This document shows positions 5,755-55,475 of a stretch of 64,000 nt of DNA, one piece after another (within the stretch, counting starts at the first letter, position 1; every line of letters begins with the position of its first letter). Both the position numbers and the translations under genes were made by a program. Source of the stretch: Candidatus Helarchaeota ASGARD archaeon Hel_GB_B (lineage in GTDB: Archaea; Asgardarchaeota; Lokiarchaeia; Helarchaeales; HEL-GB-B); contig SUPR01000001.1 of NCBI GenBank assembly GCA_005191425.1, positions 5,762 to 69,761 of the forward strand, written 5' to 3'. Under the pieces are notes generated by a model. That model made no database searches. It was not told where the DNA came from and worked only from the letters and a program-made list of their open reading frames with translations.

Positions 5755-6783
5755 TTAATGCCATTCGGCACTGCATTGTAAACATCGGTGTTTTTTAGCA
5801 TAAATTGGTCTTCCAGCTGCAATATATAAAATTCTACTCTTATCAATTTCCTCAACTACTCTCTTTGATCCGCATTTAGGACATCTCCAATGATCTTCTA
5901 GAGTAACATTTTCGGTAGCAGTAGTGTCTGGTGCATTAACTGCGGGAGTTGCAACAGGACTGGATACAGATTTTTCGGCGGGTACACTTTCAATTAACTT
6001 TTGACCTTCTTGAAATGCAGACTGAGGTTGAGGCGCTTGAGTTCGAGTTTGTAATGATTGAATTTGATATTGCAAGCTAGATATTTCTTCATTTAATTTT
6101 GCAATTTGTTGGTCTTTTTCATTAATAACTGACTGTAATTGAGCTATTTCAGAATCTTTTTGTGATATAATCTCTTGAGAACTACTAGCAGCCTGTAACT
6201 GAGCTTCTAACTCTTTAATTTTTTCTTCATTTTGGCGTATCTCATTTAATAATTCATCATTGTCTTTCATTAGACTTATAATTTCATTTTCTTTTTCCTT
6301 AATTTTTGAGTCAAACTGAGCAGTATTCTGATTTATTTGCACCATTTGATCTCTTAAGGACTGTATCTCATTATCTTTTTCGGCTATTATTGAATCTTTT
6401 TCATTAATTATTTTATCTTTATTTGCAATTTCGGCTTTAACTGTATTTACAGCTTCTTGAACATCATTTATTGCTTGTTTTAATTCCTTAATGTGATTAT
6501 CTTTAGTGGTCAATTGTAATTTTAAATCACTTATTATCTTAGTATTTTCGTCATTAGTTTGTTCTAATTCTGCTAATTTATCACTTAATGTTTTTTCTTG
6601 GACTTTTAGCTGCTCTTCTAAATCCTTTATTTTTGAATTTGCTTCTTGATTTAAAATTTGAACCTTTTTTAATTCAGCTTCAAGCATAACAATTTTTTTC
6701 TTGCGGTCTAAAAGATATATACCTGAAACTTTATAAGATTTCTCTGGCTTTTCTTGTATCTTTTCCCAATCTGGTTCTTCCAT
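5755..6783 (-). CDS. Coiled-coil protein with a C-terminal C4 zinc ribbon
   Basis: About 230 aa of heptad-like, E/K/Q-rich sequence, then a proline-rich linker and CPKCGSKRVVEE...HRCLQCSAEWH. Confidence 0.6.
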   Translation of the reverse strand: MEEPDWEKIQEKPEKSYKVSGIYLLDRKKKIVMLEAELKKVQILNQEANSKIKDLEEQLKVQEKTLSDKLAELEQTNDENTKIISDLKLQLTTKDNHIKELKQAINDVQEAVNTVKAEIANKDKIINEKDSIIAEKDNEIQSLRDQMVQINQNTAQFDSKIKEKENEIISLMKDNDELLNEIRQNEEKIKELEAQLQAASSSQEIISQKDSEIAQLQSVINEKDQQIAKLNEEISSLQYQIQSLQTRTQAPQPQSAFQEGQKLIESVPAEKSVSSPVATPAVNAPDTTATENVTLEDHWRCPKCGSKRVVEEIDKSRILYIAAGRPIYAKKHRCLQCSAEWH

Positions 6784-6959: not shown

Positions 6960-7877
6960 TTATTCAGTTTCTATATGGATCCACCCTTTTAGTTGATATT
7001 TGTTAATCACATCAAGTATCTCAGTTTCCGATTTCTTTGTTAATTCAGCAATTTGTTTAATAGAATGTTTCCCATCACAAAATTGAATAACTTGGCCCTC
7101 TTCAAATGAAAATTTTTTATCAATGTATTTTTCTAATAAAATGGGATAAAGCTCGATATCACCTTCATTTTCTTTTTCAGATATATCAGGAGTAGCACTG
7201 ATATATGTTTTACCAATAATTTTACTTTTATATAATTCGTCTTCGGATATAGTAGTAATTATTTCAATCCAACCTTTGTCTTTATATGTATTTATTATTG
7301 ATAAAATCTCTGCTTTTGGCAATTTTACTTGCTTAATTATTTCGGCGATTGTTTTTTCACCATCGCATAATTTTAATACAAGCCCTTCGTTATATGCATA
7401 TTTTTTATCTTTATATTGCTGCCTCAAAAGGGGGCACTGTATTTCTTCTAAACTTTTTGGAATTTCTCTTTTCTTTAACTTAATTATTTTATGAGCATTC
7501 TTTTCAATTTCTTCCATTTGAACAATGTTTTCAATATACTCATTAATTTTAGGAGTATAATTCTTAACTATACCTTGAAACAGTAAAATATTTCCGCTTT
7601 GCCCCTTTTCTAAATAAATTGCAACTAATATATTTTCAGATATCCGAAAAAAACCTAAAGGCGCAGAAATTGGTAGTGAATACTGCCCAATATTTATGTT
7701 CAAATTTTTATAAAAATCCTCGATTATATCTTTTTGTGCGTCTAATTGTTTATCATAGTAATAGTATTTACCATTTAAATCTAAAATTGCAAGATATGGT
7801 GTATCTGCAATAATTGATTTCATTTTTGTTTTTATTTCCTTGACCAAATTATCAAATGGATTGAAAGTCATCTTCAA
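6960..7877 (-). CDS. Hypothetical protein with an N-terminal roadblock/LC7-like domain followed by two tandem ~65-aa winged-helix-like repeats
   Basis: N-terminus (PYLAILDLNGKYYYY...NILVAIYLEKGQSGNILLF) has a roadblock-like beta-alpha-beta pattern. An internal repeat is present: KKYAYNEGLVLKLCDGEKTIAEIIKQVKLPKAEILSIINTYKDKGWIEI versus KKFSFEEGQVIQFCDGKHSIKQIAELTKKSETEILDVINKYQLKGWIHI. Confidence 0.45.
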   Translation of the reverse strand: MKMTFNPFDNLVKEIKTKMKSIIADTPYLAILDLNGKYYYYDKQLDAQKDIIEDFYKNLNINIGQYSLPISAPLGFFRISENILVAIYLEKGQSGNILLFQGIVKNYTPKINEYIENIVQMEEIEKNAHKIIKLKKREIPKSLEEIQCPLLRQQYKDKKYAYNEGLVLKLCDGEKTIAEIIKQVKLPKAEILSIINTYKDKGWIEIITTISEDELYKSKIIGKTYISATPDISEKENEGDIELYPILLEKYIDKKFSFEEGQVIQFCDGKHSIKQIAELTKKSETEILDVINKYQLKGWIHIETE

Positions 7878-11854: not shown

Positions 11855-12820
11855 TTAATATAACTTCTCTAATTCAGTACCACATTTAGGACATCTATAT
11901 CTTGCAGGTTTTGGGACTTTATATTGAACATTACAATATCTACATATCATAGGATAACTCTTTTTTTCTTGTTGTTGTCTGGCTTGTTCTATGAGCTTAT
12001 TACAATAGTCGATTTGCTCTTGTAACCAAGTCATTCCATCTTCAAATTTGACTTTACTTGCATATTCATATGCTTGCTTAAATAGATTTAACGCTTCATG
12101 ATGATCCCCAGATTGTAATCTGGATAACGCTACATTTGAAAGCTTTTTATAATTTTCCAATGCTTTTAAATATGCTTGCTGGTCAAATGATTCTTGAGCC
12201 TCTACAGTTTCTCCCTGTTGATTTGCTTGCGATACTTGCGTCTGAGTTTGCGTTGCTGTAGACGCTGTGCTACTTATTGTCGGCATGCCAATGTCTTCTC
12301 GCTCACCTATTAATAATTTAGTTAATGCATAAAATACCTCGTTTACACTTTGCCCTGATTTTGCAGATGATTCAATATAACTAACCCCTCTTTGGGCTGC
12401 AAACTCCCGCGCCTCTTCCACTGACACTTCACGATCTGGTAAGTCGGCCTTATTTCCCACTAATACCCACGGAATATTACTGCCACAATTTGTGAATACC
12501 TCATTGAACCATGTATTAGATAAACTCTCAAAACTCTTACGATTCGTAATATCAAAAGCAAAGATCGCACCAGAAGCACCTTTATAGTAAAGTGGACGAA
12601 TATAAGCGAACCTTTCCTGCCCACCAGTGTCCCATATTTGTAATTTGACTTTCTTTCCATTAATTTCAATTGTTTTTATTGAGAAATCTACCCCAATTGT
12701 CATTTTATATTGGTCTCTAAAAATTCCTTGCGCAAAACGGGTAGTTAATGCTGTCTTACCTACACCACCTGATCCGATCACAATTATCTTAAATAAATAG
12801 TCAAAATCTCCATTTGTCAT
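11855..12820 (-). CDS. Rab-like small GTPase (Ras superfamily) with a C-terminal extension ending in a C4 zinc ribbon
   Basis: G1 GSGGVGKT, switch I TIGVDF (RabF1-like), G3 WDTGGQERF, G4 NKAD, G5 SAK; YYKGA (RabF4-like). The C-terminal ~120 aa ends in CRYCNVQYKVPKPARYRCPKCG. Confidence 0.8.
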   Translation of the reverse strand: MTNGDFDYLFKIIVIGSGGVGKTALTTRFAQGIFRDQYKMTIGVDFSIKTIEINGKKVKLQIWDTGGQERFAYIRPLYYKGASGAIFAFDITNRKSFESLSNTWFNEVFTNCGSNIPWVLVGNKADLPDREVSVEEAREFAAQRGVSYIESSAKSGQSVNEVFYALTKLLIGEREDIGMPTISSTASTATQTQTQVSQANQQGETVEAQESFDQQAYLKALENYKKLSNVALSRLQSGDHHEALNLFKQAYEYASKVKFEDGMTWLQEQIDYCNKLIEQARQQQEKKSYPMICRYCNVQYKVPKPARYRCPKCGTELEKLY

Positions 12821-25831: not shown

Positions 25832-28800
25832 TTGGCACAAGTTGAAGTTATCACGAAAGATGTTATAATAGATGTACTGACAAATAACTGGCTAACAAAG
25901 CCAGAATTATTTAAAAAACTTCCACCGATAAGAGAACAGAGTACTGTAAAAGTTATTAATGATTATTTAGATACATTAACCCAAAAAGGAATTGTTACAA
26001 AAAAAATAATAAAAGGTAGAATTTGTTTTGGAATTTTTAAAGAAAAAGGGAACGAACCACATCTTAAACAAACAAAATTGGACCAAATAATGCCTAAAGA
26101 CCGGCAAATTAAAAAGACGGAGTCAAGAGTAAAAATAGGAAAAACTGTTTACACAAAAACAGTACCAAAGACAAAAGTAACTAAATCCAATAAAAAGACT
26201 TCAAATAAAATAAAAAAATCTGTGGATAATACTCAACTTAAAACTAAAAAAGAAAAAGGTACACCGAAAACAGATTCGATTGAAAAAAAGGACAATATTA
26301 AAAAAGAATCTATCAAAAAAAAGGAAACTCCAGCTAAATCTGACCTAAAAAATAGACCAGACCAAAAGCCAAATTTACCAATTAAATCCAAATCTAAATC
26401 TGAAAGTAAATCAAAAGCCGCAACTGATATTAAATCAGATCAAGGAGCAGAATCACATCCAAAATCTAAAGAAACTCAAAAACCTGAATTTAAAGAAAAA
26501 ACCGAATTATCAAATATAATAGAAAAGGAGAAAATAAAAGTTAGCCACAAATATAAAAGACGAAAAATTAATAAATCAGGAATTTTACCGACACGAGAAT
26601 ATGTCATGAGCAAAAAAGAAGAAGTTGGTACAGATAGAGCTTATCAACAACTTTCTCCCGCTGAATTTTTTAAGAAGAATAAAGCAATTGCAGGTTTTGA
26701 TAATGATCAAAAGGCAGTTTATACAACAATTAGAGAATTAGTTGAAAATTCTATTGATGCAGCTGAAGCAATCGAAAAGCCCCCAGATATTTTTATAAAA
26801 ATGGAGTCGCTTCCGAATAATAGATATAAGATTACAATCCGTGATAATGGCTCAGGGGTACCTGATGAAGAGATCCCAAAATGTTTTGGTATATTATTAT
26901 ATGGATCTAAATATATAAGAAAACAAGGAAGAGGTGCATTTGGTTTTGGAGGTAAGATGGCAATATTATATGGACAGATATCAACATTAGAACCTGTCGA
27001 AATAAAAAGTTCTACTAATGGAAAAGAAATTTATTATTACAAAATGAGGATTGATATAAAAAATAATGAACCGATAATTGAAGAATATAAAGTAATACCA
27101 AATTCGGATAATTGGACAGGAACAGAAATATCATTTAAATTTAAAGGAGATTATCCTAGAGTACGAAAAAAAGTATTAGAATACTTAAATAAAACTGCAA
27201 TTATCACACCTCATGCAGAAATCGAATATATTGAACCAATAGATGAGCGATGTGAAAAATGTAGATCAGATAGAGTTGAAACTCTTGGAGATGTGATATA
27301 CTGTAAAAAATGTAGTAATAAATTTATTCATAATATAAATATTAATGATAATTTTACTTTAAAAAAGATATTTCAAAATAAAATCGGTGGAATTGATAAA
27401 GACCTCTTTAACAAAATAAAATTGGATTTGTCGGATATTTTAGACGCTGAAATTGATAAACTCAGTAATTTAAGAGAAATATATAATAAAATTGAAGATA
27501 TTTATGGAAGTCCAATAGGAATAACCAAGGATAATTTAATTAATAAAATTTTTAAATTAATTTTAAAAGGAATTAAGAACTTTACAATTATTTCTAAGAA
27601 ATATAAGAATATTTCAGAAATAGATGTTACTACAAAAAAAGAAATAATAGAATTAATTGAAAATATAAATAATTTGTTTAAATATGTGGGTGGAAAGTCA
27701 TTCCCAATTACAAGTTTAACACCCGCAAATATTAAAACAAAATTAGAACATGAAAAAAAATTTCTAACTAGAGCAAAAAATTTTGATGCTTTTCTTTTAG
27801 ATATAATTTCAGGACTTGGAAAAAAGACATTAAAAAAGGTAGAGGATGAATATGGAGAAAATTTAAAAATAGATATTTTCGAAGCAGAATCTAAAATTGA
27901 TATGAATAAATTATATAAAATATTATATAAAAATCTTACATCTGGATTAATAAACATTAAAGATTTGACATTTGAACAATTCAAACAACTTATAGAAGAA
28001 GTAAAAAAAGAAAAAATTAAATATATCTCTAAATTAAAAGATGGAGTCCTTGAATATATCAGAAAAGATGCGTTTCTATCTCAGAAAGAGCCCTATAAAT
28101 TTATAAATAATTCAGTGGAAAAATGTCCATATTGTAATTCATCAGATATAATACAAATTGGGGACTGGAGGCAATGTCAAGTAAGTTCATGCAAGCATAA
28201 TTATTTAAATATTTATAGACACATTTATAGAAGAGGTACTACAGAATTACCGCCAAACCCGACTGCCAGTCTTCCGCATCCGCACGGAATTGATGCAGAT
28301 ACATTATTAGAAATGATTAAAGCAGAATTAAGCGAATTTTATATCACCTATGAACCTATAGGTAATTATTCTATGCAAAAACTATTAAGAAAAAATATTA
28401 AAGGAATTGGAAAAGAAACACTCAATAAGATTGAAGAATTAACGCCCGAATCCCTTGAGAAAGATGCCGATAAATTTAGAAATGTTAATCAATTGTATAA
28501 GGCAATTGAAAAAGCAGTGGGACATCCAATAGGAAAAGTTGAGGGTAAAAAAACAGTTTACAACATTAATAATTTAAAATTTGAAGAATTTAAAGAAATT
28601 ATTAACAATGAACTTTCAAATAATACTAATTTAGACTCTATTTTGAAAAAGTTATTTTCAAGATTGCGGGTTAAAATCTTAAATGAAATTAAAAAAGAAT
28701 TAGATATACAAATCGACCAACAGATTCCTTCAAATATTGATTTAGAAAAGTTATACAAATTATTATTAAAAAAACTCCCTAAAACCAATTCAATTAATGT

Positions 28801-29878
28801 AAAAGAATTAACTCTTGAAAAATTAAAACAATTAATCGAAAATGTCAAAAAAGATAAACATGAAGAGTTTAGGAAAGCAAGCCCAAATTTTTATTCATTT
28901 ATGAATAAGAGATTTCAGAGGACCGGGAAAAAAACAATTAATAATTTCTGTGAATTTGCGCGGCAAAATTCAACATTAAAGCTTTATCCAGAAACTTTAC
29001 TAATGGACCTAGATAAAGATGCCATAGTTAAAATCACGGATTTACTTCAAAAATTTCCATTTATGAGGCCAGATGCTAGTTGTTTGGCTCCTATAGGAGA
29101 ACAATTGCTTTTAAAAGGAATTATGAAGGAGATGAACCCTGAATGGGCTAGTACAGTCCAAAGACCACCTGAAGTTTGTGAAGGACATCCATTTATAATT
29201 GAGATGGGACTTGCTTATGGAGGAAAAATAGATTCTTCGGGTGATTATTTACAAAGATTTGCTAACCGTATTCCATTACTTTATGAATCAAGTATGGGTG
29301 TTTGTGCTACTGCAATTAAAAAAATCAATTGGAGACATTATAAATTAGATTTAGATAAAATGCCAATACATATTTTTATTCACATAGTATCTACGAAAAT
29401 ACCGTGGGGACGCTTTGGCAAGGAATATATTGCAAATAAACCAGAAATTAGGTCAGAAATAGAAAAAGGGATCAAATACTTAGCGGGACAACTCCGTACT
29501 TATTTGAGTAAAATTAGAAAAAAGGAATCTATTAAAAAGAAAGTTTTTAAATTGAAAATTTTTGGCCGCGCATTAATAGAGCCTTTAGCAGAATTAGTTG
29601 AAGCAGATCCATCGATCATCGTTAGAATAATATATAATTATATTATAAGTAAAAGACCAAAAAAAGAAAAAAGTAAAAATCTGTATAAGAATTTTTCAAA
29701 CTTTTTTGATGATTTAAGTCTTTTTGATAAATTAGATTTAGAATATCTGAAATTACTGGTTAAAGAAAAAAGTAAGAATCCATTTAAGAATTTCTTAAAT
29801 TTTTTTGATAACTTTAATTATATAAACTTATTAATTAAACTAAAAATAAATGATCAAGATGTCGACCAAAAGAGTTAG
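25832..29878 (+). CDS. top6B: DNA topoisomerase VI subunit B, strongly expanded (1348 aa). It has an N-terminal wH-like domain, a Lys-rich low-complexity linker, a GHKL ATPase, a ~530-aa insertion, an H2TH/transducer region and a repeat-containing tail.
   Basis: Bergerat-fold motifs VYTTIRELVENSIDA, ITIRDNGSGVP, GRGAFGFGGKMAILYG. Transducer block MRPDASCLAPIGEQ...GHPFIIEMGLAYGG...IPLLYESSMGV...IFIHIVSTKIPWG. Directly followed by, and overlapping, top6A. Confidence 0.85.
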   Translation: MAQVEVITKDVIIDVLTNNWLTKPELFKKLPPIREQSTVKVINDYLDTLTQKGIVTKKIIKGRICFGIFKEKGNEPHLKQTKLDQIMPKDRQIKKTESRVKIGKTVYTKTVPKTKVTKSNKKTSNKIKKSVDNTQLKTKKEKGTPKTDSIEKKDNIKKESIKKKETPAKSDLKNRPDQKPNLPIKSKSKSESKSKAATDIKSDQGAESHPKSKETQKPEFKEKTELSNIIEKEKIKVSHKYKRRKINKSGILPTREYVMSKKEEVGTDRAYQQLSPAEFFKKNKAIAGFDNDQKAVYTTIRELVENSIDAAEAIEKPPDIFIKMESLPNNRYKITIRDNGSGVPDEEIPKCFGILLYGSKYIRKQGRGAFGFGGKMAILYGQISTLEPVEIKSSTNGKEIYYYKMRIDIKNNEPIIEEYKVIPNSDNWTGTEISFKFKGDYPRVRKKVLEYLNKTAIITPHAEIEYIEPIDERCEKCRSDRVETLGDVIYCKKCSNKFIHNININDNFTLKKIFQNKIGGIDKDLFNKIKLDLSDILDAEIDKLSNLREIYNKIEDIYGSPIGITKDNLINKIFKLILKGIKNFTIISKKYKNISEIDVTTKKEIIELIENINNLFKYVGGKSFPITSLTPANIKTKLEHEKKFLTRAKNFDAFLLDIISGLGKKTLKKVEDEYGENLKIDIFEAESKIDMNKLYKILYKNLTSGLINIKDLTFEQFKQLIEEVKKEKIKYISKLKDGVLEYIRKDAFLSQKEPYKFINNSVEKCPYCNSSDIIQIGDWRQCQVSSCKHNYLNIYRHIYRRGTTELPPNPTASLPHPHGIDADTLLEMIKAELSEFYITYEPIGNYSMQKLLRKNIKGIGKETLNKIEELTPESLEKDADKFRNVNQLYKAIEKAVGHPIGKVEGKKTVYNINNLKFEEFKEIINNELSNNTNLDSILKKLFSRLRVKILNEIKKELDIQIDQQIPSNIDLEKLYKLLLKKLPKTNSINVKELTLEKLKQLIENVKKDKHEEFRKASPNFYSFMNKRFQRTGKKTINNFCEFARQNSTLKLYPETLLMDLDKDAIVKITDLLQKFPFMRPDASCLAPIGEQLLLKGIMKEMNPEWASTVQRPPEVCEGHPFIIEMGLAYGGKIDSSGDYLQRFANRIPLLYESSMGVCATAIKKINWRHYKLDLDKMPIHIFIHIVSTKIPWGRFGKEYIANKPEIRSEIEKGIKYLAGQLRTYLSKIRKKESIKKKVFKLKIFGRALIEPLAELVEADPSIIVRIIYNYIISKRPKKEKSKNLYKNFSNFFDDLSLFDKLDLEYLKLLVKEKSKNPFKNFLNFFDNFNYINLLIKLKINDQDVDQKS
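29663..29830 (+). repeat. Imperfect ~45-bp direct repeat inside the 3' end of top6B. It encodes the duplicated peptides KSKNLYKNFSNFFDD and KSKNPFKNFLNFFDN.
   Basis: aaaagtaaaaatctgtataagaatttttcaaacttttttgatga versus aaaagtaagaatccatttaagaatttcttaaatttttttgataa, about 100 bp apart. Confidence 0.5.
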
Positions 29879-31082
29879 AAGTAGTAGTAAAAAGTCTACT
29901 GTAAAAAAGAAAACTACTAAAAATTCCAATAAAAAATTGACTAGTAAAAAAGAGGTTGAAAAAGAAAAAAAGAAGGAAATTTCAGAAGAATCATTAATTG
30001 TTATAGAAAATATTGATTTTTATGCAAATCAAATTTTAAAAGGATTTATTAATGGTAATCCAACCATAGAAATTCCAATTAGAGGAAAATCAAATGTTGA
30101 ATATGATGAAGAGAGGGGGATTATTAAAGTATTAGATAAATCAAAAGTTTCTGAACGATCTTTTCAAAATATTGCACATACAAAAAAATTTATGCAGTAC
30201 ATTATGGTCTTGAATTTTTGTAAAAAATTATTGAAGACAAACTCGACTTCTGATTTAAGAGATTTATATTATAGTTTAAAGAGAAAAATACCAGGGACAA
30301 GAAATAAAACATTTGATTCACAAGAAGAATCAAATCCAATTATTGAAGATATAGAAGTAGCTATGGACATATGGAGAGAACGATTACATATTTCTGCAGA
30401 TCCAAAGGGGTACATCGTTGGTGATATTATTTTTACTCAAAAATTAAAAAATAAAGACCAAAGAATTGATTGTAATGAGATGGGTACCGGTTGGGGAATT
30501 CCGAGTAATGTAGAAAGGGACATTTTAGAAATAGAAAATGTAAATGCAAAATATTTATTGGCTATTGAATCTGCAGGAATGTACAGCAGACTGGTTGAGG
30601 AAAATTTTCATGAAAATAATAAGTGTATATTAATTGCATTAAAAGGCCAAGCAAGTAGAGGGACTAGAAGATTAATAAATCGGATTGCTTATGAAAAGAA
30701 TATACCAGTTTATGTATTCGTAGATGGAGATCCATGGGGTTTTTATATTTATTCAGTGCTTAAATTCGGTAGTATGTCGTTATCTTTTATAGGGAGTAAA
30801 CTGGCTACACCTAAAGCAAAATTTATTGGAATGACGATGGAGGATATAAGCGACTATAAGTTAGAAGATTCAACTCATCCGTTAAGTAAAGTAGACATTA
30901 AAAGAATAGATGACCTATTGGATTTACCATGGTTCCAAAATGATGAATGGCAAACTGAACTAAAATTGATGAAAAAAATTCAAAAACGTATCGAACAACA
31001 GGCGCTTGCATCAAGGTCGTTAGATTTTGTAGCCACGACTTATTTACCTGAAAAAATTAAAAATAAGAAATTTTTACCTTAA
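29850..31082 (+). CDS. top6A: DNA topoisomerase VI subunit A (Spo11 family)
   Basis: CAP/winged-helix with catalytic Tyr context RDLYYSL. Toprim domain with AIESAGMYSRL (Glu) and FVDGDPWGFYI (DxD). Lys-rich N-terminal tail; the start may be the internal Met at 29859. Confidence 0.85.
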   Translation: MIKMSTKRVRSSSKKSTVKKKTTKNSNKKLTSKKEVEKEKKKEISEESLIVIENIDFYANQILKGFINGNPTIEIPIRGKSNVEYDEERGIIKVLDKSKVSERSFQNIAHTKKFMQYIMVLNFCKKLLKTNSTSDLRDLYYSLKRKIPGTRNKTFDSQEESNPIIEDIEVAMDIWRERLHISADPKGYIVGDIIFTQKLKNKDQRIDCNEMGTGWGIPSNVERDILEIENVNAKYLLAIESAGMYSRLVEENFHENNKCILIALKGQASRGTRRLINRIAYEKNIPVYVFVDGDPWGFYIYSVLKFGSMSLSFIGSKLATPKAKFIGMTMEDISDYKLEDSTHPLSKVDIKRIDDLLDLPWFQNDEWQTELKLMKKIQKRIEQQALASRSLDFVATTYLPEKIKNKKFLP

Positions 31083-35392: not shown

Positions 35393-36157
35393 ATGTTACA
35401 TTCATTTCATGTTATTGAGAAAATAAGTGGAAGATCAATTTTTTCTAAATTATTTAAAGAGTTATTGATAGATCCAGCACTATTAAGTGGGTTTCTTTCA
35501 GCTATGAATTCATTTGCAATGAGTGAATTAGCAGATAAGGGAATTGAAAATATTGATATGAAAAATATTCGTTGGGTTTATATTGATGATAAAGATTTAT
35601 TATTTATTATTGGCGCAGATAAAGAAGATGAAGCAGAAATGCTAAAGAACCAACTAAAAGTCCTCAAGGATTCTTTTATTGAGTTTTTTTACATCAAGGA
35701 TGGGTTCAGTAATATCAACTGGGATGGTAATACAACTATTTTCCAAGATTTTGAGCCTGTTTTGGAGGAAAATGTTAAGAGCTGGGAAGAAGCTAAAAAA
35801 GTAAAAAATGCAGCAGCATTAATGGACTTGCTAGATATTTATCAAAATTTATTTGCTAAGCTTGCATTATTTCCAGAAGCAAAACCACTTGATTTAGAAA
35901 ATATCGATATCATGGAAATGGCATTTGATGAACAAAATGCATCATGGAACGTCCATAAATTAGCTAAATTAGATGAACAAGATTTAAGAGCGAAACTTAA
36001 GGACGTAATCAGTAAATTTGTAATAATTTTGCAAAAAACTGCAAAAGATTATTATACCAAAATCAAGACCTTTGTTTTTCCATACATTAGAGAAGATTGG
36101 CAACGAATTAAAGATGCTAAAATGGACGAAGATATAATTAATTTATTCTTAACTTAG
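35393..36157 (+). CDS. Hypothetical protein with an N-terminal longin/roadblock-like domain
   Basis: Residues 1-100 (LLSGFLSAMNSFAMSELAD...WVYIDDKDLLFIIGADKEDEAEMLKNQLKVLKDSFIEFF) follow a beta-beta-alpha-beta-beta-alpha longin/roadblock-type pattern. The rest is a helical acidic region. Confidence 0.35.
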   Translation: MLHSFHVIEKISGRSIFSKLFKELLIDPALLSGFLSAMNSFAMSELADKGIENIDMKNIRWVYIDDKDLLFIIGADKEDEAEMLKNQLKVLKDSFIEFFYIKDGFSNINWDGNTTIFQDFEPVLEENVKSWEEAKKVKNAAALMDLLDIYQNLFAKLALFPEAKPLDLENIDIMEMAFDEQNASWNVHKLAKLDEQDLRAKLKDVISKFVIILQKTAKDYYTKIKTFVFPYIREDWQRIKDAKMDEDIINLFLT

Positions 36158-45785: not shown

Positions 45786-46697
45786 TTATTTATTAAAAAA
45801 ATTTAATATTTCAGTTGCACCACTTTTTAATGCAAGCCCTGCTAATTGAGTAGAGGAATTAGGGCCAATTTGAGTTATTATTAAAAATCCGCTTTTTTTG
45901 TTAGGAATTTTTACTGGCATTAAAATTAATTTGCCTCGTTCACCATCAATTGTTGAGAAGGTCTTACCAATATTAAAAGCATCGCCCACAGAATTTGCAG
46001 ACAATGCCACTGTTGATGCAATTAATGAACCAATATTGACATCAATTTCATGTGGAAAAGTCGAGAATAAAACACGCCCCTCAGTGGTAGAAATTAATGC
46101 AGCTATTGCTCCAGCTTTTGTTTTTATAGTTTCCATGATTTTATTTAGAGCTTTCATTGTTTCTTCATCATATAAAGGGACATTTTCTTTAGGTCCAATT
46201 AAAAATTTGCACATTTTATCTCCTTTGGCAATACATTCAGTTTCATTTATCTCAACTTCAGAATCGAATAATACACTAGCCATACCTTTTAATATTCCTT
46301 GAATACCAAAACATGATGCTATTCCTTCTTCGTAAGCTTCAGGGGAGTTTTGAATCTCAATATATATTTTTTTATTATCTTCATCTATATTTATATTCCC
46401 CAATGTTGCACCCCAGCCTCCTCGTTCTAAGCTTCTTAAGATAAACCTAAACGCGGTATTTTTATCTGCTTTTTTCTTATCTATAACAAGTTCCATAAAT
46501 CTTTTACCAATATCTTCTCCAATTTTAATATAAATTGGCCGAAGACCCTCTTTTAAAAATTTATTTGCAGTGAGATACATCTGTCTAAAATGTTCAATAT
46601 GAAGTATAATTATTCTGAAATTGAAGCCTTTAATTTCTCCTTTAAAAATAGAAAAATCTTTGAAAGTAAAATTTTTAGTCTCTTCTAACAAGCCCAT
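45786..46697 (-). CDS. V4R (Bet3/TRAPP-like) domain fused to a C-terminal roadblock/LC7 domain
   Basis: V4R signature SCFGIQGILKG...EVEINETECIAKGDKMCKFLI (C-x-G ... E-x-E-C-x-x-G-D-x-x-C-x-F). C-terminal IAALISTTEGRVLFSTF...GERGKLILMPV...GFLIITQIG roadblock pattern. Confidence 0.7.
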   Translation of the reverse strand: MGLLEETKNFTFKDFSIFKGEIKGFNFRIIILHIEHFRQMYLTANKFLKEGLRPIYIKIGEDIGKRFMELVIDKKKADKNTAFRFILRSLERGGWGATLGNINIDEDNKKIYIEIQNSPEAYEEGIASCFGIQGILKGMASVLFDSEVEINETECIAKGDKMCKFLIGPKENVPLYDEETMKALNKIMETIKTKAGAIAALISTTEGRVLFSTFPHEIDVNIGSLIASTVALSANSVGDAFNIGKTFSTIDGERGKLILMPVKIPNKKSGFLIITQIGPNSSTQLAGLALKSGATEILNFFNK

Positions 46698-46760
46698 ATT
46701 TTACACCTTTTATTATTAAAAAAGATAAATCATTTAAAATAAAAATAGAGTTAGATAGAT

Positions 46761-49700
46761 TTAAACTCTTGTAATTTTGGTAGATGAAGCCATCCAAATG
46801 GGTCCAATTATTTCGTGAATTAACGCTACCAAAGTTTCTTGTTGAGATACTAATGCAGTTAATTGTGTTAGGTCGTATTTTTCAGAATATGGTGCAATTA
46901 ATACTTCTTCACCGTCTCTACCAACTGCAAATAGGTTCATCTCAGGTCTTTGCCTTATTTGTACATTTCCTAATTCTAGCAACTCTCTAACCTGGTCTTT
47001 TGCTTCGTTCAAGATACGAGATGCAACAATTATTCTTATTCTTCGACTAGCGGATTTAATAGTTTCTAGAGGCAGGTCACTAAAATCAGGAGCTACAATA
47101 GATACAGTTGATTTTGTTCTCATAAGAATGTCCCGGATATATTCTTTTATTGCCTCAACACCTACTAATGGCCAAGTAAGTTCGCCGGATTTCGCTAGTA
47201 TATTAGTAGTTTCCTGCCATACTGCTCTTAGAAGTTGACTTACTTTTAAGGTTTCACCTTCAGCTTCTCTGAATGTAAATGCCGCATCTTTATTAGTGTT
47301 TGTAAGTCGCTCTGTTAATATAGAATCGGTTTCATCTAATTTTGCAGCTAATTTTTCATTTAATGAATTTGCGTTTGATTCATAGTCAGTTTGGTGTTGG
47401 CTAGCTAATTGTAGTAAATCAGTTTCTAGTTTTGCAGCATCTGCTTGGAATCCTGCGGCATGGTTGGAAATTGTTTCTTTACATTCCTCATAAGTTTTGG
47501 TAGTCAATTCTTTAATTTGTGCTAAATATTTATTATCAATTTCGTTTATATCGTTTTTTATTTGTGAAAATCCTTCATTCATAGTATTAGATATTTGCTC
47601 TTGGACATCATTTGCCATTTTATTAACTCGTTCGTTATCATTGTTGACAAAATCTTTAATAGTATTTTTCATTTGATTTAATGCTTCGTGGCCACGGTTT
47701 TTAACATCATCTACTCGTTTAATTTCGGTCTGTACTATATTTGCGACATCATCTTTTTTCTCGTCTATCGATTTATTCATATTAGCTGTTATTTCATCTA
47801 ATTCTCCTAACTTATTATCATCAATTTCTTGAAGATTTTTCTTATGCTCCTGGATTATATTTGCAAGCAATGAAATAGATTTATTACGAATTTCATGTGA
47901 TTGTGATTCAACATTACCTACTCTTAAGTCTAATGCTTTATAAAATTCATCACGCATTGAATCAAGTTCGTTTTGATATTCTTTGATTCTATCATCTAGA
48001 GTATCAGAAAGAACTTGCTCCAATTTACTTGTATCTTCTTGTAAAAGTTTATTTTGGCCGGAAATCTTGGATAAAAATTCGTCTTTCAATTTATTTAGTA
48101 AGTCGCTGTATCTTTTTATGACATCATCTGATTTACTAACTATCGAGTCCTTCATTTTGTAAAAATCTAATTCTATTGCTTCTACTTGAGAATTAATTAT
48201 TTCTTGAGACTGGTCACCATATTTAGAAGCATTATCCTTGAACCAATTTAAGTTATTATTATTATATTTGTCAAAAACAGCAGATACATTTTCCTTTTTA
48301 GTATTTATCGATGAAATTTCGGAACTGATAATATCAGCAAGATTTTCAGTAGTATCGTTTGACCATTTGTCTAAAGATTCATTTACCTTATCTTGATAGT
48401 CTTTAATATTTACTTCTAACTCTTTAACTAAATTTTTTGATGTTTCATTTATGGTATTAATTAATTGTTCATTAGCCCCGCGTTCTTCCTTAATTTTTTC
48501 ATTTAATTTTCTAATAGCATTATCAATAATTTCCTTAATTTCAGGTCTGTCTTTACTATATTCTTTTAATTCATTTTCCAGTTCTTTTTCCCAGTCACGG
48601 AGATTATGAATTGTTTTTGTTATTTCCCCTGATGAAACATTTTTAATTGAGTCGACCTTGGTCTGAATTTCGTCATGTAAAGTTTTCGATAAAGATTTTA
48701 TCTTATTTTTTTCTTCAGATTTCAGATTTTTAATTGAATTATTTGCTTTTGATTTTAAATCATCCAAATTTTTGTTTAAATTAGAAATACTTGCATCTAA
48801 TTCTTGATTGAATTCACTCCTTGCGGAATTTATTTCATCTGTTAATTGAGCTAAACGCTCGTCTAAATTCGAAGTTAATGTTTTTTCCAAATCAGTTGAC
48901 CCGGCTTGAAGCCTTTTAATTTGACTTGTAAATTTGTCAAGAAATTCCTGTTGTATATCACCAACTAATTGCTTGAACCTTGAAATTAAATCATTTGTAA
49001 AATTTGCTACATCATTTGTAAATTGATAGAATTCGGTATCTCGTTTAGTAATTTCATTATTAAACAATTTTTCAGCAGTTTCACGAAAATTGCTGGCTCT
49101 ATTTTTAAACCATTCCATATGATTATTTTGTGAATTTTGAATTTCAGACCTTAATTCCTTATCTTTTTCCCAAGTAGCTTCAATTTCCTTTTTTATCATT
49201 TCTAAGAATTCGTCTGATAAATTTTTATGCCATTCATCATAGGCAGTGTAATTTTGATTGCGATTACTATTAATAATATCATTTACTCCTTTGACATATT
49301 CGACCATTATTCGATCAGTGAATTCATCAAATACGCCATCAATGCGAGTATTAAGTAGATTTAATCCTTCTACATTTTCGGCAGAGACTTTATCGAGAAT
49401 TTCATTGCCGTAATTGTCCAAGACATTATCAATATTATTATTTAAATTATTTAATTCATTTTTATGTTCATCGGCTGTAGTATCATGTATATTTTTAGTT
49501 TTTTGCATTAATTCATTATATCTATTTTCCAGGTCATTAGCCAAAGTGTCTTCATATTCATGAATTAATTTATTGTGGTCATCATTACGCTGATTAAAAT
49601 TGTTAGTTATCTCTTCTTTTCTCGATTCCACATCAGAATTTAATTTTATTACTTGATTTGTAATTAAATTAGAAATTCCATCTCTAGCATTAATTGTATC

Positions 49701-50132
49701 TTTGGCAAATTGTTCTAATTGAGTATTTATAGCCTCTGCTACTTGATCTTTAAGAGTTATGACCTCTTGCTTTAAGTCATTAATATGTTTATTAATGTTA
49801 GAATCGAAATCCTCTCGTTGTTTGATAGTTTTTTCTCTATATTGATCCAAAAATTGAGTAAAGGCAGAATAAGGGACGACTGGCATATATCTATTTATAT
49901 CTTTAGCTGCTGAACCTATTGCAACAGCAAGGTTATTATCTAAAAATTTTTGTATTGTATTTCTCGCTTCTTCCATTGAGATATTTGCCAATGCCGCTAA
50001 AGATGATTCAGTTATATATCCTTTTGCATATAATGCGACAAAGGCTCTTGCTTCAGCTTCTGTTAATGTAACACCTCGTTCTTTAAAAGTATCTATAATT
50101 ATTTGAAACATATTTTGGTTTTGTACACTCAT
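46761..50132 (-). CDS. Giant (1123 aa) coiled-coil protein with an N-terminal TrmB-like winged HTH and a ~170-aa globular C-terminal domain
   Basis: N-terminus FQIIIDTFKERGVTLTEAEARAFVALYAKGYITESSLAALANISMEEARNTIQKFL is a TrmB-type wHTH. About 850 aa of E/K/N/D-rich heptad-like sequence with no Walker motifs. The C-terminal domain is non-repetitive. Confidence 0.7.
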   Translation of the reverse strand: MSVQNQNMFQIIIDTFKERGVTLTEAEARAFVALYAKGYITESSLAALANISMEEARNTIQKFLDNNLAVAIGSAAKDINRYMPVVPYSAFTQFLDQYREKTIKQREDFDSNINKHINDLKQEVITLKDQVAEAINTQLEQFAKDTINARDGISNLITNQVIKLNSDVESRKEEITNNFNQRNDDHNKLIHEYEDTLANDLENRYNELMQKTKNIHDTTADEHKNELNNLNNNIDNVLDNYGNEILDKVSAENVEGLNLLNTRIDGVFDEFTDRIMVEYVKGVNDIINSNRNQNYTAYDEWHKNLSDEFLEMIKKEIEATWEKDKELRSEIQNSQNNHMEWFKNRASNFRETAEKLFNNEITKRDTEFYQFTNDVANFTNDLISRFKQLVGDIQQEFLDKFTSQIKRLQAGSTDLEKTLTSNLDERLAQLTDEINSARSEFNQELDASISNLNKNLDDLKSKANNSIKNLKSEEKNKIKSLSKTLHDEIQTKVDSIKNVSSGEITKTIHNLRDWEKELENELKEYSKDRPEIKEIIDNAIRKLNEKIKEERGANEQLINTINETSKNLVKELEVNIKDYQDKVNESLDKWSNDTTENLADIISSEISSINTKKENVSAVFDKYNNNNLNWFKDNASKYGDQSQEIINSQVEAIELDFYKMKDSIVSKSDDVIKRYSDLLNKLKDEFLSKISGQNKLLQEDTSKLEQVLSDTLDDRIKEYQNELDSMRDEFYKALDLRVGNVESQSHEIRNKSISLLANIIQEHKKNLQEIDDNKLGELDEITANMNKSIDEKKDDVANIVQTEIKRVDDVKNRGHEALNQMKNTIKDFVNNDNERVNKMANDVQEQISNTMNEGFSQIKNDINEIDNKYLAQIKELTTKTYEECKETISNHAAGFQADAAKLETDLLQLASQHQTDYESNANSLNEKLAAKLDETDSILTERLTNTNKDAAFTFREAEGETLKVSQLLRAVWQETTNILAKSGELTWPLVGVEAIKEYIRDILMRTKSTVSIVAPDFSDLPLETIKSASRRIRIIVASRILNEAKDQVRELLELGNVQIRQRPEMNLFAVGRDGEEVLIAPYSEKYDLTQLTALVSQQETLVALIHEIIGPIWMASSTKITRV

Positions 50133-50146
50133 TTTATATTTCCTCC

Positions 50147-52030
50147 TTATGAACTACCTCCTTCTATGGCTACTTTTGTTCTATTTAACTTTTCTACAAA
50201 ATCAGCCAACCCTAAATTTTGGAATTTTTGAATGGAATCCTCCAAAATGTCCTTGGCTTTATCTACTTGCCCTTGAATTGCATATACATTTGATAAGTTA
50301 GTATAAAATTGCCATGCATAAAAATATTCATTATTTGAAAAGAATGTCTTTGCTGCTTTTGTTAGTACATTTATTACTTCATTTGTGGCATTTATTTCTT
50401 CGAAATACTTTTTAGCTTGAGTATAGTTTGCTCTGGCTAATGGATATGCCTTGTCCTTAATGCAATCTTCGGCTTTTTCGACAAATAAATTAGCCAATTT
50501 ATTTATTAATTCTTTCACTTTTTCGGGTTCTCCTAAGCTTCTATTTACATCAATTGCATTAATGAGGACATCCCTGCCATAATCTAATAACCCTTTTTCG
50601 AGGAACTTTTCTGTAAAACTTTCCAAAATATTTGCGGCTTTTTCTTTTTCATTAACTTTTACGAGACTATCCCCTGCAAGTAATATAAACTTAAAAACTT
50701 CATTATAATATCCATAATTATAATAATTCATAGCTATATCATAATAACCATTTGCGATATGCTCAACTGCAGATACCAGTCCCGCTGTTAGAGAATCAGA
50801 TCTTAGACGTTCTAATTCTTCGAATTGAAAATCTTCCAATAATCTTCCATTTTCAGCCAAATTCATTGCAACTTTAATTAGACCTCTTGCTTGCGCATCT
50901 ACTGCAATATCACCCAAACTACTTCGTAAATAAATCCAAAAACTGTCTAATGTAATATAATAAACACTATCTTCTTTACTCAAATATTTTCCAATCATTT
51001 TTTCAAGTATTGGTTTGATATCTTCACTTTTTGCGCCAATCGAACGAGCTATTATATCAATATCTGCAAAATTTGCATTTTCCATTGCAAATGACTGTAA
51101 TATTTTTCTTTCGTCCTCAGTTAATTCTTTAAGTTCTCGTCCAAAACCTTCTTTAACTCCGCCTTCAGCTTTAAACCATACATCTTTACCTAGTTCTCTT
51201 GTATCGCCTCTATTTTCATACAACCATCCGCCATTATAAACTAAATAAAGAGGAATTCCACCACTATGTCTTAATAAATTCTCTTTTATCTCTTCACTAA
51301 ATTTAATTCCTGCTGCATCTGCTCTTTTATCAAGTAATTCTATTGCATCAGCATTATTTAAAGTTGGTAAACCTATTTCGTGAAAATCCTCTAATACATA
51401 ACGAACTTTTGGATAATACTTTTCCCAAACAGACATCAAAAAGAGAACAGGGAGGTTTGGATTTTTTACATCCGTTTTTATAGCGTCTACTATTGCTTTT
51501 AATACATCAAATGCATTGTCATGATTTAATATTATAAATCTTTCAACAAGATTAGAAACAATTAGAATACCTTTTTTATTGAATTTATTACCTTGAATAT
51601 TTTTAATAATTTTAGGTAATTTTTTAACAATTTTTTTCAAAAAAGAATCAATATACTTACTCATATCAGGGATTTCATAGCTGCTTTTTAAAAGCGGAGC
51701 TTTTTTACCTGGTTTTGTAATAGGTTTCTTTTTGTCCACGGGTTTCGTTATTTCATCTAATTCATTGCTTATTACATCGAAATAACCTTCAATATTTATC
51801 AATGGTACATCATATCTAATTACCAGAAAACCATTTGATGAAGCTATGGACTCGATTTGTTTTAAAAAACTTCTTCTACCAATTCCTTCGCGTCCATGTA
51901 ATATTAAGCCATGTGAAATATTTTCTCGGTCAGCTATTTTTTGCAAAATTCCTGAAAATTGATCTATTTCTCTTTTTCTTCCCACAAAGAATTTCGCTGG
52001 GCATGTTTCTAATTTAAATGGGTCCGTCAT
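50147..52030 (-). CDS. Arch-ATPase-like (PF01637-type) P-loop protein with a C-terminal TPR-like helical repeat region; the Walker A is degenerate
   Basis: FVGRKREIDQFSGIL...LILHGREGIGRRSFLKQIE aligns with the Arch_ATPase block FvGRe.El..L...vyGpRRvGKTsLl, but the Walker A Lys-Thr is replaced (GIGRRS). The C-terminal ~250 aa has TPR/helical repeats (YYNYGYYNEVF..., AWQFYTNLSNVYAIQGQVDKA). Confidence 0.6.
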   Translation of the reverse strand: MTDPFKLETCPAKFFVGRKREIDQFSGILQKIADRENISHGLILHGREGIGRRSFLKQIESIASSNGFLVIRYDVPLINIEGYFDVISNELDEITKPVDKKKPITKPGKKAPLLKSSYEIPDMSKYIDSFLKKIVKKLPKIIKNIQGNKFNKKGILIVSNLVERFIILNHDNAFDVLKAIVDAIKTDVKNPNLPVLFLMSVWEKYYPKVRYVLEDFHEIGLPTLNNADAIELLDKRADAAGIKFSEEIKENLLRHSGGIPLYLVYNGGWLYENRGDTRELGKDVWFKAEGGVKEGFGRELKELTEDERKILQSFAMENANFADIDIIARSIGAKSEDIKPILEKMIGKYLSKEDSVYYITLDSFWIYLRSSLGDIAVDAQARGLIKVAMNLAENGRLLEDFQFEELERLRSDSLTAGLVSAVEHIANGYYDIAMNYYNYGYYNEVFKFILLAGDSLVKVNEKEKAANILESFTEKFLEKGLLDYGRDVLINAIDVNRSLGEPEKVKELINKLANLFVEKAEDCIKDKAYPLARANYTQAKKYFEEINATNEVINVLTKAAKTFFSNNEYFYAWQFYTNLSNVYAIQGQVDKAKDILEDSIQKFQNLGLADFVEKLNRTKVAIEGGSS

Positions 52031-54971: not shown

Positions 54972-55475
54972 ATGCAAGTCTATATTACAACACTTGGGCG
55001 ATCTGAATGGGCAGTTATCAATAGTTATTATGCAGTTGTTAAAAATAAGAGATATTACCCAGATTTAATTTATATCATAACTGAAGATTTGTTCCAAGAT
55101 AGAATTCACAAGATAATAGATGGTCTAAATATCATTTCAAATGAGTTTGGATTTAATCCAGAATATAAATTGACAATTGTAAAAGAATCCGAGTTTTCTG
55201 ATGCAAAGAATAAAATCGATATAATCGCAAAAGATTTAGAAAATTCTAATAATATGATTGCCGTAGATATTACATCTGGTCGAAAAGTATTAGTAATTAA
55301 TATTCTCTTATTAATATTCTATTCAAAAATAAAAGTTCAACATATTTTTTATTTAGCAATAAAGACAATTAAAGGGGTTAATAAACCATATGAAATGATA
55401 CCAATTCAAATTCAATCATTAAGAGATTTTATCCAAGAAATTAATGAGGTGAAAAATAGACCAAATGGCACATGA
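54972..55475 (+). CDS. CARF-domain protein (cyclic-oligoadenylate sensor-like Rossmann domain), standalone
   Basis: MQVYITTLGRSEWAV (compare the Csm6/Csx1 TLGTS loop) and AVDITSGRKVLVI (compare the CARF D-[IL]-T-[SH]-G-[TF]-[KR] motif). Length 167 aa. Confidence 0.55.
   Translation: MQVYITTLGRSEWAVINSYYAVVKNKRYYPDLIYIITEDLFQDRIHKIIDGLNIISNEFGFNPEYKLTIVKESEFSDAKNKIDIIAKDLENSNNMIAVDITSGRKVLVINILLLIFYSKIKVQHIFYLAIKTIKGVNKPYEMIPIQIQSLRDFIQEINEVKNRPNGT

Follow-up and report, generated by a model that had tools for sequence, protein, structure and literature searches.

Eukaryotic Rab GTPases carry at their C-terminus a hypervariable region and prenylated cysteines. The Rab-like proteins of archaea have a truncated C-terminus without cysteines and with "no membrane association signal" (PMC4915359; PMC10933270). 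Among the 74 small GTPases of MKD1, 35 are single-domain proteins, 26 are fused to roadblock or longin domains, and the remaining architectures include "various domains of unknown function" (Tran et al., PMC10933270). In general, the multidomain signature proteins of Asgard archaea are mostly lineage-restricted in their architecture (Liu et al., bioRxiv 10.1101/2020.10.19.343400). In this work, we analyzed a stretch of 64,000 nucleotides from Candidatus Helarchaeota archaeon Hel_GB_B (contig SUPR01000001.1, positions 5,762 to 69,761; hereafter, the window) and, in particular, the gene that encodes a Rab-like GTPase with a long C-terminal tail (Table 1). The Asgard Rab-like G domain was already known; its combination with a MIT/TPR-like three-helix bundle and a zinc ribbon was described in none of the literature surveyed and is, on this basis, a new, lineage-specific form.

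The reading that we favor, to which we assign a probability of roughly 55%, is that of a GTP switch to which a protein-docking module is tethered. In this scenario, the gene would encode a catalytically competent Rab-like GTP/GDP switch belonging to a paralogue-rich Helarchaeota subfamily, in which a MIT/TPR-like bundle and a directly following four-cysteine (C4) ribbon would stand in place of the hypervariable region and the prenylated cysteines; in the orthologue group P0001-P0004 only, a flexible Thr/Gln-rich insertion would separate this module from the G domain. We infer that the tail serves for docking on other proteins and, being built into the GTPase, fixes the place or the partner of its action, and the G domain would recruit or release factors according to its nucleotide state through the Rab-type switch/interswitch surface (F46, W63, Y78). 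The docking partner may possibly be a helical peptide motif, of the kind of the MIT-interacting motifs of ESCRT-III, or a filament-forming protein.

The Rab-like nature of the G domain emerged from the profile, sequence, and structure comparisons. The Pfam Ras profile (PF00071) matched residues 11-169 with an E value of 9.8e-57 (191.5 bits, cut-off 21.6), and the TIGR00231 small_GTP profile with an E value of 3.9e-33 (114.5 bits, cut-off 42.5). Other families gave much poorer matches, i.e., Arf (E 1.3e-13, 51 bits), Gtr1_RagA (E 4.3e-5), and EngA, Obg, and LepA (E from 4e-4 to 9e-3). In the sequence search on PDB, all the 60 distinct matches listed were Rabs (E from 1.7e-48 to 8e-41); Rab35 ranked first (1.7e-48), followed by Rab30, Sec4, Rab1, Rab43, Rab8, and others, and the crystallised Thorarchaeota Rab (7ezb) was matched at E 1.3e-42. 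In the full-length AlphaFold2 model, the predicted local distance difference test score (pLDDT) was 82.9 overall and mostly above 90 in the G domain, which, according to Foldseek, is superimposable on Rab8, Rab1, Rab35, and Sec4 with a TM-score of 0.95, a root-mean-square deviation (rmsd) of 1.0 Å, and 40-50% identity. The pairwise identity of the G domain was 47% with Rab35, 45% with Rab1A, and 43% with Rab11A, against 39% with HRAS, 36% with RAN, 33% with RAC1, and 27% with ARF1 (partial alignment), the values being indicative for the references other than Rab35. These data agree with the first-pass annotation of the window, made from the letters alone, which had recognized in this gene a small GTPase similar to Rab and of the kind known from Asgard archaea. 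The same annotation had named a MglA/Arf-like prokaryotic GTPase as an identity that would speak against its reading; similarity does not point to it, since all the 60 listed PDB matches are Rabs and Arf reaches 51 bits against the 191 of Ras.

All five motifs of the GTPase core, G1 to G5 (GSGGVGKT, T41, DTGGQE, NKAD, and SAK), are present and invariant in the alignment of 31 family members, in which the positions of the Rab effector triad (F46, W63, and Y78) are also invariant. As for the Rab family motifs, whose consensus from RabF1 to RabF5 is IGVDF, KLQIW, RFrsiT, YYRGA, and LVYDIT (Pereira-Leal and Seabra, quoted in PMC4915359), RabF1 (residues 42-46) and RabF2 (59-63) are exact, RabF4 shows a conservative change (YYKGA, 78-82), and RabF3 (RFAYIR) and RabF5 (FAFDIT) match only in part. 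The motifs quoted by the first-pass annotation were all recovered in the translation, namely IGVDF, KLQIWDTGGQERF (residues 59-71, covering RabF2 and the switch II region), YYKGA, the Thr/Gln-rich stretch, and CRYCNVQYKVPKPARYRCPKCG (residues 293-314, i.e., the ribbon, whose CRYC codons were hand-checked on the DNA at 11933-11944). All the full-length homologues and nearly all the close homologues of the G domain come from Asgard metagenome-assembled genomes (MAGs). In a crude neighbor-joining (NJ) tree of 130 G domains, whose deep nodes, those that bear on the position relative to eukaryotic Rab, Ras, and Rho, had bootstrap values below 35, the family grouped with other Asgard Rab-like proteins and not inside the eukaryotic Rabs. 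Because of the partial RabF match and of the low bootstrap of the deep nodes, the domain is called here, on the grounds of its sequence, "Rab-like (Asgard type)" and is not assigned to the eukaryotic Rab family.

The G domain is complete by about residue 175, and the extension that follows it comprises about 146 residues, rather than the approximately 130 initially estimated. In the list of open reading frames (ORFs) of the window, the gene is a single unbroken frame starting with ATG, and upstream of this codon the frame stays open for only two codons more. An identical protein is present in public databases (P0001), and its 90% cluster includes one member named "MAG: GTP-binding protein [Candidatus Helarchaeota archaeon]". 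The C-terminus (...ELEKLY, ending CPKCGTELEKLY) has no CaaX, CC, or CXC motif, so that the absence of a prenylation box, noticed at first reading, holds; the only C-terminal cysteines are the four of the CxxC/CPxC knuckles of the ribbon, at least eight residues from the end.

The tail is shared by many proteins and is conserved far beyond what chance would give. A C..C-x13-15-CP.C tail was found in 43 out of the 120 homologues listed (262-333 residues in length, mostly 293-305), and in the 31 full-length homologues aligned C293, C296, C310, P311, and C313, together with Y224, A254, and W265, are invariant, several further tail residues being conserved in at least 90% of the sequences. The comparison with the 80%-identical orthologue in locus L001 gave a dN/dS ratio of 0.067 in the G domain and similar ones in the helical region (0.042) and in the ribbon (0.084), values that are approximate because dS is close to saturation; the amino acid identity between the two proteins is 94% in the ribbon and only 47% in the linker. 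The tail is thus conserved and under a purifying selection as strong as that acting on the G domain. The first-pass annotation had itself raised the doubt that the tail might derive from a mis-joined downstream ORF, that is, that the fusion might be an artefact of annotation or assembly. One database entry, P0343 (157 aa), does resemble a stand-alone tail ORF, but it is cut off by a stretch of 10 N that interrupts the G domain on contig CAZYEE010000122.1, and the reading frame is kept before and after this gap. Furthermore, the GTPase-tail frame is unbroken in the window, the same architecture recurs in the 43 listed homologues, which come from many independent assemblies, and purifying selection acts on the tail. 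The continuous frame, the homologues, and the selection together indicate that the tail belongs to the same gene, and a mis-joined ORF is excluded. As a side observation, the 90%-identical orthologue on contig CAZYEE010000122.1 (loci L006 and L007) is annotated as two ORFs of 155 and 157 aa, and the 10-N gap, which falls in the G5 region, has thereby introduced a spurious "tail-only" protein into the databases.

The structure of the tail was also predicted on its own. The resulting AlphaFold2 model (pLDDT 90.1) shows a three-helix bundle and two beta hairpins bearing the cysteine knuckles; the helices span residues 214-236, 240-256, and 260-285, and the helical module has the family signature Y..Y...A......GN..EAL..LK.A..WAK...FEDG..W.EDQ. 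About one third of the 50 best Foldseek matches of the tail in PDB are MIT domains (VPS4A/B, SKD1, spartin, NRBF2, and archaeal Vps4-like proteins), which makes MIT the named fold found most often among them, and the archaeal Vps4-like MIT domains 2v6y_A (S. solfataricus) and 2w2u_A fit with an rmsd of 1.5 Å over 70 columns and a TM-score of 0.73-0.74. The top match of this search, rubrerythrin (E 0.027), which combines a helical bundle with a rubredoxin tail, was discarded as an architectural coincidence, the rmsd being 12-15 Å.

An alignment of 58 sequences of the helical module was then compared by hhalign with a profile of the Vps4 MIT domain, obtained from 119 homologues annotated as PF04212 with a VPS4A MIT query verified as identical to PDB 2jq9/1yxr. 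The local alignment had a probability of 75.7% and a score of 29.3 over 33 columns, with helices 1 and 2 in register (..GN..EAL..LK.A.. with ..kNYeEALrLYehA..). In the controls, 200 column shuffles scored on average 10.2 (standard deviation 2.4, maximum 21.0) and the reversed profile scored 8.1, so that the match lies about eight standard deviations above the shuffles. With the single VPS4A MIT sequence, the probability was 28% and the register was off by one helix. The resemblance to tetratricopeptide repeats is weak, TPR_12 matching 7 of the 24 tails searched with 18.5-19.6 bits (cut-off 30.1). True TPR proteins are matched about as well as MIT domains, and the hidden Markov model (HMM) of the helices aligns to them only over several weak segments. 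According to these models and alignments, the module can be described as a probable MIT/TPR-like three-helix bundle, and homology to MIT domains is suggestive. Bundles of the MIT/TPR type are peptide- and helix-binding modules.

The second element of the tail has the features of a C4 zinc ribbon, that is, two CxxC-type knuckles placed on hairpins in the AlphaFold2 model and four ligand cysteines invariant in the 31 sequences; in the model, beta strands at residues 289-293 and 298-302 are followed by the second knuckle (pLDDT about 90). Therefore, both parts of the tail that the first-pass annotation had described, the helical region and the C4 ribbon, were recovered, and the predicted ribbon would bind zinc. 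Among the known profiles, that of the zinc finger of lunapark (Zn_ribbon_10, PF10058) matched 6 of the 24 members with 19.2-21.5 bits, below the cut-off of 24.2; HypA, TFIIB, RPB12/RpoP, and HVO_2753-like proteins also gave sub-threshold matches. Family members differ in the net charge of the ribbon, which lies between 0 and +7 and is +5 in the window GTPase; this implies that there is no conserved basic patch. These results bear on the possibility that the ribbon binds nucleic acid, in which case the protein would be an RNA- or DNA-associated GTPase, linked, for instance, to the ribosome or to transcription. We regard it as very improbable: the weak matches with RPB12/RpoP, TFIIB, eL43, and ribosome-bound HVO_2753-like proteins (E 0.02-0.3) and the basic ribbon of this orthologue speak for it, but none of those matches reaches its threshold and what they detect is the generic CxxC...CPxCG pattern, the basic patch is not family-wide, and the G domain is Rab-like and not of the translation-factor or ribosome-biogenesis type.

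A different function of the tail would be that of a membrane-targeting device replacing prenylation, in which the ribbon, with or without the helices, binds lipid head groups or a membrane protein. The fact that Asgard Rab-like proteins lack prenylatable cysteines and known membrane signals (PMC4915359; PMC10933270) makes such a device conceivable, as do the basic ribbon (+5) of the window GTPase and the weak match with the zinc finger of lunapark, a protein shaping the endoplasmic reticulum (21.5 bits; 6/24 members). Nevertheless, outside the packed bundle the tail contains no hydrophobic, amphipathic, or transmembrane segment, the charge of the ribbon is not conserved, and the lunapark match remains below its cut-off. 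Moreover, in the only archaeal case characterised, that of CdpC, the membrane anchor of the FtsZ1 ring of Haloferax volcanii, it is an amphipathic helix that contacts the membrane, whereas the C-terminal ribbon binds protein, the C-terminal domain binding FtsZ1 in a zinc-dependent manner (bioRxiv 10.64898/2026.07.16.738847). We thus consider membrane targeting unlikely. Of the three roles that the first-pass annotation had left side by side for the tail (membrane, nucleic-acid, or partner targeting), the partner is the better supported one, and a membrane device in place of lipidation has no direct support.

The two domains are joined in the window GTPase by a linker in which a Thr/Gln-rich stretch occupies approximately residues 184-205 and the pLDDT falls below 50 at residues 178-210. 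The first-pass annotation had included it among the parts of the extension; it turned out not to be a family feature, being an insertion of 25-40 residues present only in this GTPase and in its three closest homologues. The distance between G5 and the helical module is 60-72 residues only in P0001-P0004 and 32-41 (mostly 33 or 36) elsewhere, where the tail starts about 10 residues past helix alpha5. In most members, therefore, the module must adjoin the G domain, and this would fit a tail acting as an intramolecular pseudo-effector on the switch/interswitch (autoinhibition) or as a dimerisation element pairing two GTPases. Eukaryotic Rab-binding domains often consist of helices and a zinc finger (rabphilin, EEA1, rabenosyn-5), Rag GTPases dimerise through their C-terminal domains, and several paralogues per genome, with and without the ribbon, would be able to pair. 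Against this, about 35 residues of disordered linker lie between the two domains here, the full-length model (predicted TM-score 0.55) gives no confident sign of docking, no Rab-effector structure was found among the fold matches of the tail (Foldseek, PDB), and the same helical module exists in proteins without a GTPase. An autoinhibitory or dimerising tail thus has, in our opinion, only a small probability.

The phylogenetic distribution of the architecture was checked at two levels. When 1.84 billion representative sequences were searched exhaustively by HMMER with the profile of the tail, complete tails emerged in no more than two full-length clusters (50% identity), together with two fragments of the tail; a word-indexed protein search with the tail profile likewise yielded just two fragment proteins. 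In 185,579 GTDB species-representative genomes, 295 stretches encode relatives of the GTPase, but residues 1-320 were matched at only nine loci in five genomes, titled Helarchaeota or "uncultured archaeon"; the MAG LW55_61 harbors four full-length paralogues. Matches restricted to the G domain were found in Lokiarchaeum ossiferum, in P. syntrophicum MK-D1, and in Thor-, Odin-, Heimdall-, Hod-, Frey-, Jord-, Atabey-, Sigyn-, and Borrarchaeia. Some of the listed protein homologues bear Loki-, Hod-, or Promethearchaeota names, which suggests that the naming of MAGs is loose. The idea of a zinc-ribbon architecture general to Asgard archaea did not hold, the full form being found, among the species representatives, only in the genomes titled as above. 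This, in turn, would imply an elaboration specific to one lineage rather than an ancestral trait of the eukaryote-like type; judging from these sequences, the subfamily appears to be confined to Helarchaeota and to have expanded there into several paralogues.

The GTPases that bear the module group, in the NJ tree, in a single weak clade (bootstrap 24) made up of well-supported subclades (89 and 94). Within a ribbon-bearing subclade lie eight paralogues without the ribbon, which are 252-261 residues long and terminate with helix 3 or shortly past it; this is consistent with a secondary loss of the ribbon. The helical module is found also in other contexts: without a GTPase in the HEAT-repeat proteins P0145 (annotated Helarchaeales) and P0154, in a HEAT-GTPase-module-ribbon arrangement in P0133, between a GTPase and other regions in P0143 and P0153 (annotated Lokiarchaeota), and in tandem in P0195. 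The presence of the module in such varied proteins points to a mobile domain of the interaction type. As for the HEAT-repeat proteins in themselves, the Helarchaeales P0145 and P0154 combine an FEDG..W.EQ module with an uncharacterised C-terminal domain of about 180 residues, and in P0133 a Ras-like GTPase is inserted into the same HEAT scaffold, which also bears a zinc ribbon.

Protein docking is favored because MIT/TPR-like bundles bind peptides and helices, because the module occurs with HEAT repeats in proteins devoid of a GTPase, and because CdpC offers a precedent. Several data weigh against this interpretation. The Foldseek search of the tail against PDB gave nothing at E<1e-3, with the MIT matches at E 0.03-0.5 and the best of them at 0.03-0.1, and designed (de novo) three-helix bundles match the tail about as well as MIT domains do; PF04212 (MIT) was not matched at E<=1 in any of the 24 tails, and the global hhalign comparison with MIT had a probability of only 11%, helix 3 (FEDG..W.EDQ) being left unaligned. 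The ribbon matches only generic zinc-ribbon models, below threshold. The subclade with a bootstrap of 94 includes 15 members with the ribbon and 8 without it, and, given that the latter are nested in the family, the ribbon must be dispensable in at least some paralogues. Finally, in the six loci examined, no conserved operon partner (roadblock, longin, GTPase-activating protein, or guanine nucleotide exchange factor) was found, so that the genomic context did not identify a docking partner.

The coordinates of the gene and of its features are reported in Table 1.

Table 1. Features of the Rab-like GTPase gene and of its product (positions in the window; residues of the protein).
Feature	Position	Strand	Residues and details	Basis
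Complete coding sequence, Rab-like GTPase with C-terminal tail	11855..12820	minus	321 aa; stop codon at 11855-11857	ORF listing
G domain, Ras fold, Rab-like	12296..12799	minus	8-175	Pfam, TIGR00231, PDB matches, Foldseek, AlphaFold2
P-loop/G1 motif, GSGGVGKT	12752..12775	minus	16-23; G16, V20, G21, K22, T23 invariant	31-sequence alignment
G3/switch II, DTGGQE, including Q68 at the catalytic position	12614..12631	minus	64-69; D64-E69 invariant	Aligns to Rab35 DTAGQE
G4, NKAD, guanine specificity	12443..12454	minus	123-126; N123, K124, D126 invariant	
Disordered Thr/Gln/Ala-rich linker	12185..12292	minus	177-212; lineage-specific insertion	
Three-helix bundle, MIT/TPR-like (predicted)	11963..12184	minus	213-286	AlphaFold2, Foldseek, hhalign, dN/dS
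C4 zinc ribbon (predicted)	11867..11956	minus	289-318; CRYC (293-296), beta hairpin, CPKC (310-313)	

The GTPase gene is monocistronic. About 600 bp of AT-rich intergenic DNA precede it, and the gene downstream of it, in convergent orientation, encodes a tyrosine recombinase. The organization of the locus is maintained in L001; the other members of the subfamily have quite different, housekeeping neighbors, and two loci adjacent to Hef are syntenic with each other and contain no recognisable regulator. Since the neighbors differ between loci, the gene context yields no partner for the GTPase. The remainder of the window corresponds to an ordinary archaeal chromosome, with genes for topoisomerase VI, coenzyme A and pantothenate metabolism, a thiolase, and the tyrosine recombinase.

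The first-pass annotation had also stated that the same CPKCG-type ribbon ends the product of a gene located at 5755-6783 (minus strand), a coiled-coil protein of 342 residues with weak ATG16- and crescentin-like matches. This protein does have a C4 ending, but not one of the same ribbon family (HMM E>1): its cysteines are arranged as CPKCG-x27-CLQC, so that CPxCG represents the first knuckle there and the second one in the GTPase, and the shared ribbon was discarded. The two proteins have no more than the ubiquitous CPxCG knuckle in common, and the HMMs of the ribbon and of the helices detected no other ORF of the window at E<=1, that at 5755-6783 included. An apparent orthologue of this coiled-coil protein (338 aa, no Pfam match, cut by the end of the locus) occupies the syntenic position in L001. 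A gene at 6960-7877 (minus strand), flanked on one side by the coiled-coil/zinc-ribbon gene and on the other by an ATP-grasp gene, in an order kept in L001, encodes a protein of 305 residues with a winged-helix (HTH_47/TrmB) match at residues 167-208 and an apparent second, repeated segment resembling a winged helix-turn-helix near the C-terminus.

The window also encodes proteins of the roadblock and longin types. A V4R and Roadblock/LC7 fusion protein of 303 residues (45786-46697) is encoded on the minus strand 33 kb from the GTPase gene, and no evidence links the two genes. It lies immediately downstream of two large genes on the same strand, one (46761-50132) for a protein of 1123 residues whose weak apolipoprotein- and ATG17-like matches suggest a coiled coil, the other (50147-52030) for a protein of 627 residues with a SNAP/TPR-like C-terminus; the three genes (45786-52030) could form an operon. 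On the plus strand, at 35393-36157 and 23 kb from the GTPase gene, a protein of 254 residues weakly matches the first longin domain of FUZ/MON1/HPS1 (E 9e-4) and is a possible longin-type GTPase regulator.

Two further features of the chromosome deserve mention. The B subunit of topoisomerase VI (25832-31082, plus strand), whose gene is followed by that of the A subunit, is unusually long (1348 aa): about 290 residues come before the ATPase domain (HATPase, 292-413), and about 650 separate it from the transducer domain (1080-1237); the extra length could be due to an intein or to another insertion. At 54972-56472 (plus strand), the gene for a Csa3-N-like (CRISPR-associated Rossmann) protein is followed by that for a PIN_4 domain protein, and the two reading frames overlap.

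Outside the window, a second architecture was found among the Asgard Rab-like proteins (P0050, P0056, P0059, P0060, P0069, P0071, P0079, P0096, and P0107), in which the G domain is followed by a Pro-rich disordered linker of 200-330 residues and by a terminal Zn_Ribbon_1 (PF13240). The linker contains a conserved SLDEAL..L and a repeated F(I/T)PF motif, and the ribbon has the pattern CPxC-x9-W[KR]FCTYCG. In the NJ tree, these proteins are a weakly supported sister group of the module family (bootstrap 14), and their C-terminal part resembles a "hypervariable region" of unusual length in which a ribbon takes the terminal place of the prenyl group. Since this second group has independently come to end in a ribbon, it seems that these GTPases have resorted to C-terminal ribbons repeatedly. 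On this basis, a broader and rather doubtful hypothesis can be put forward, according to which ribbon tails would be the way in which Asgard archaea localise Rab-like switches without prenylation, and the MIT-like bundle with its ribbon would dock onto a polymer or a membrane-remodelling assembly; this could be represented by ESCRT-III-type helical tails or by FtsZ- or actin-like filaments. The localisation could take two forms, that is, with a MIT-like bundle in the family analyzed here and on a long Pro-rich, "hypervariable-like" linker in the sister group. If this were true, Rab-type GTPases would have a protein-based address system independent of lipid anchoring.

The subfamily thus offers the case of Asgard Rab-like proteins with a conserved and selected C-terminal module of the addressing type, unlike the truncated forms previously reported (PMC4915359; PMC10933270). 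Together with the second ribbon-tailed group, the subfamily, with its tail of about 110 residues, represents a tractable experimental handle on what Asgard Rab-like proteins bind and on where they act. The interest of the locus is moderate and lies chiefly in this tractable entry to the question of how these proteins are targeted.

In comparison with the known systems, the eukaryotic Rabs (Rab35, Rab1, Rab8, and Sec4/Ypt) are the best matches of the window GTPase in both sequence and structure and share with it the F46, W63, and Y78 triad; unlike them, the window protein has no hypervariable region ending in CC, CXC, or CaaX and carries DTGGQE in place of DTAGQE, and the sequence and structure searches made found no eukaryotic Rab with a zinc-ribbon tail. 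The MIT domains of Vps4/CdvC (PF04212) are, like the tail module, three-helix up-down-up bundles of about 70 residues and share with it N-Y-x-E-A-L-x-L-[YK]-x-A in helices 1 and 2, whereas helix 3 of the tail, FEDG..W.EDQ, differs. CdpC provides another case of an archaeal C-terminal C4 zinc ribbon placed on a flexible linker and used as a protein-binding module; however, it is not a GTPase, its FtsZ1 partner is an analogy only, and the likeness considered here is one of architecture. The proteins of the second Asgard architecture have a G domain 53-63% identical to that of the window GTPase and, in the same way, end in a C4 ribbon without a prenylation motif, but they differ in having no three-helix module, a ribbon of another type, and a long low-complexity linker. 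The closest described systems remain the Asgard Rab-like proteins, i.e., the Thorarchaeota Rab (7EZB) and those of Lokiarchaeota (Surkont and Pereira-Leal 2016), which also have RabF1/RabF2/RabF4-type motifs, the catalytic Gln, and no prenylatable Cys; single-domain Asgard homologues are 55-62% identical to the window GTPase over residues 5-172. The described archaeal Rab-like proteins are about 180 residues long, whereas the Helarchaeota subfamily has an extra conserved tail of at least roughly 120 residues.

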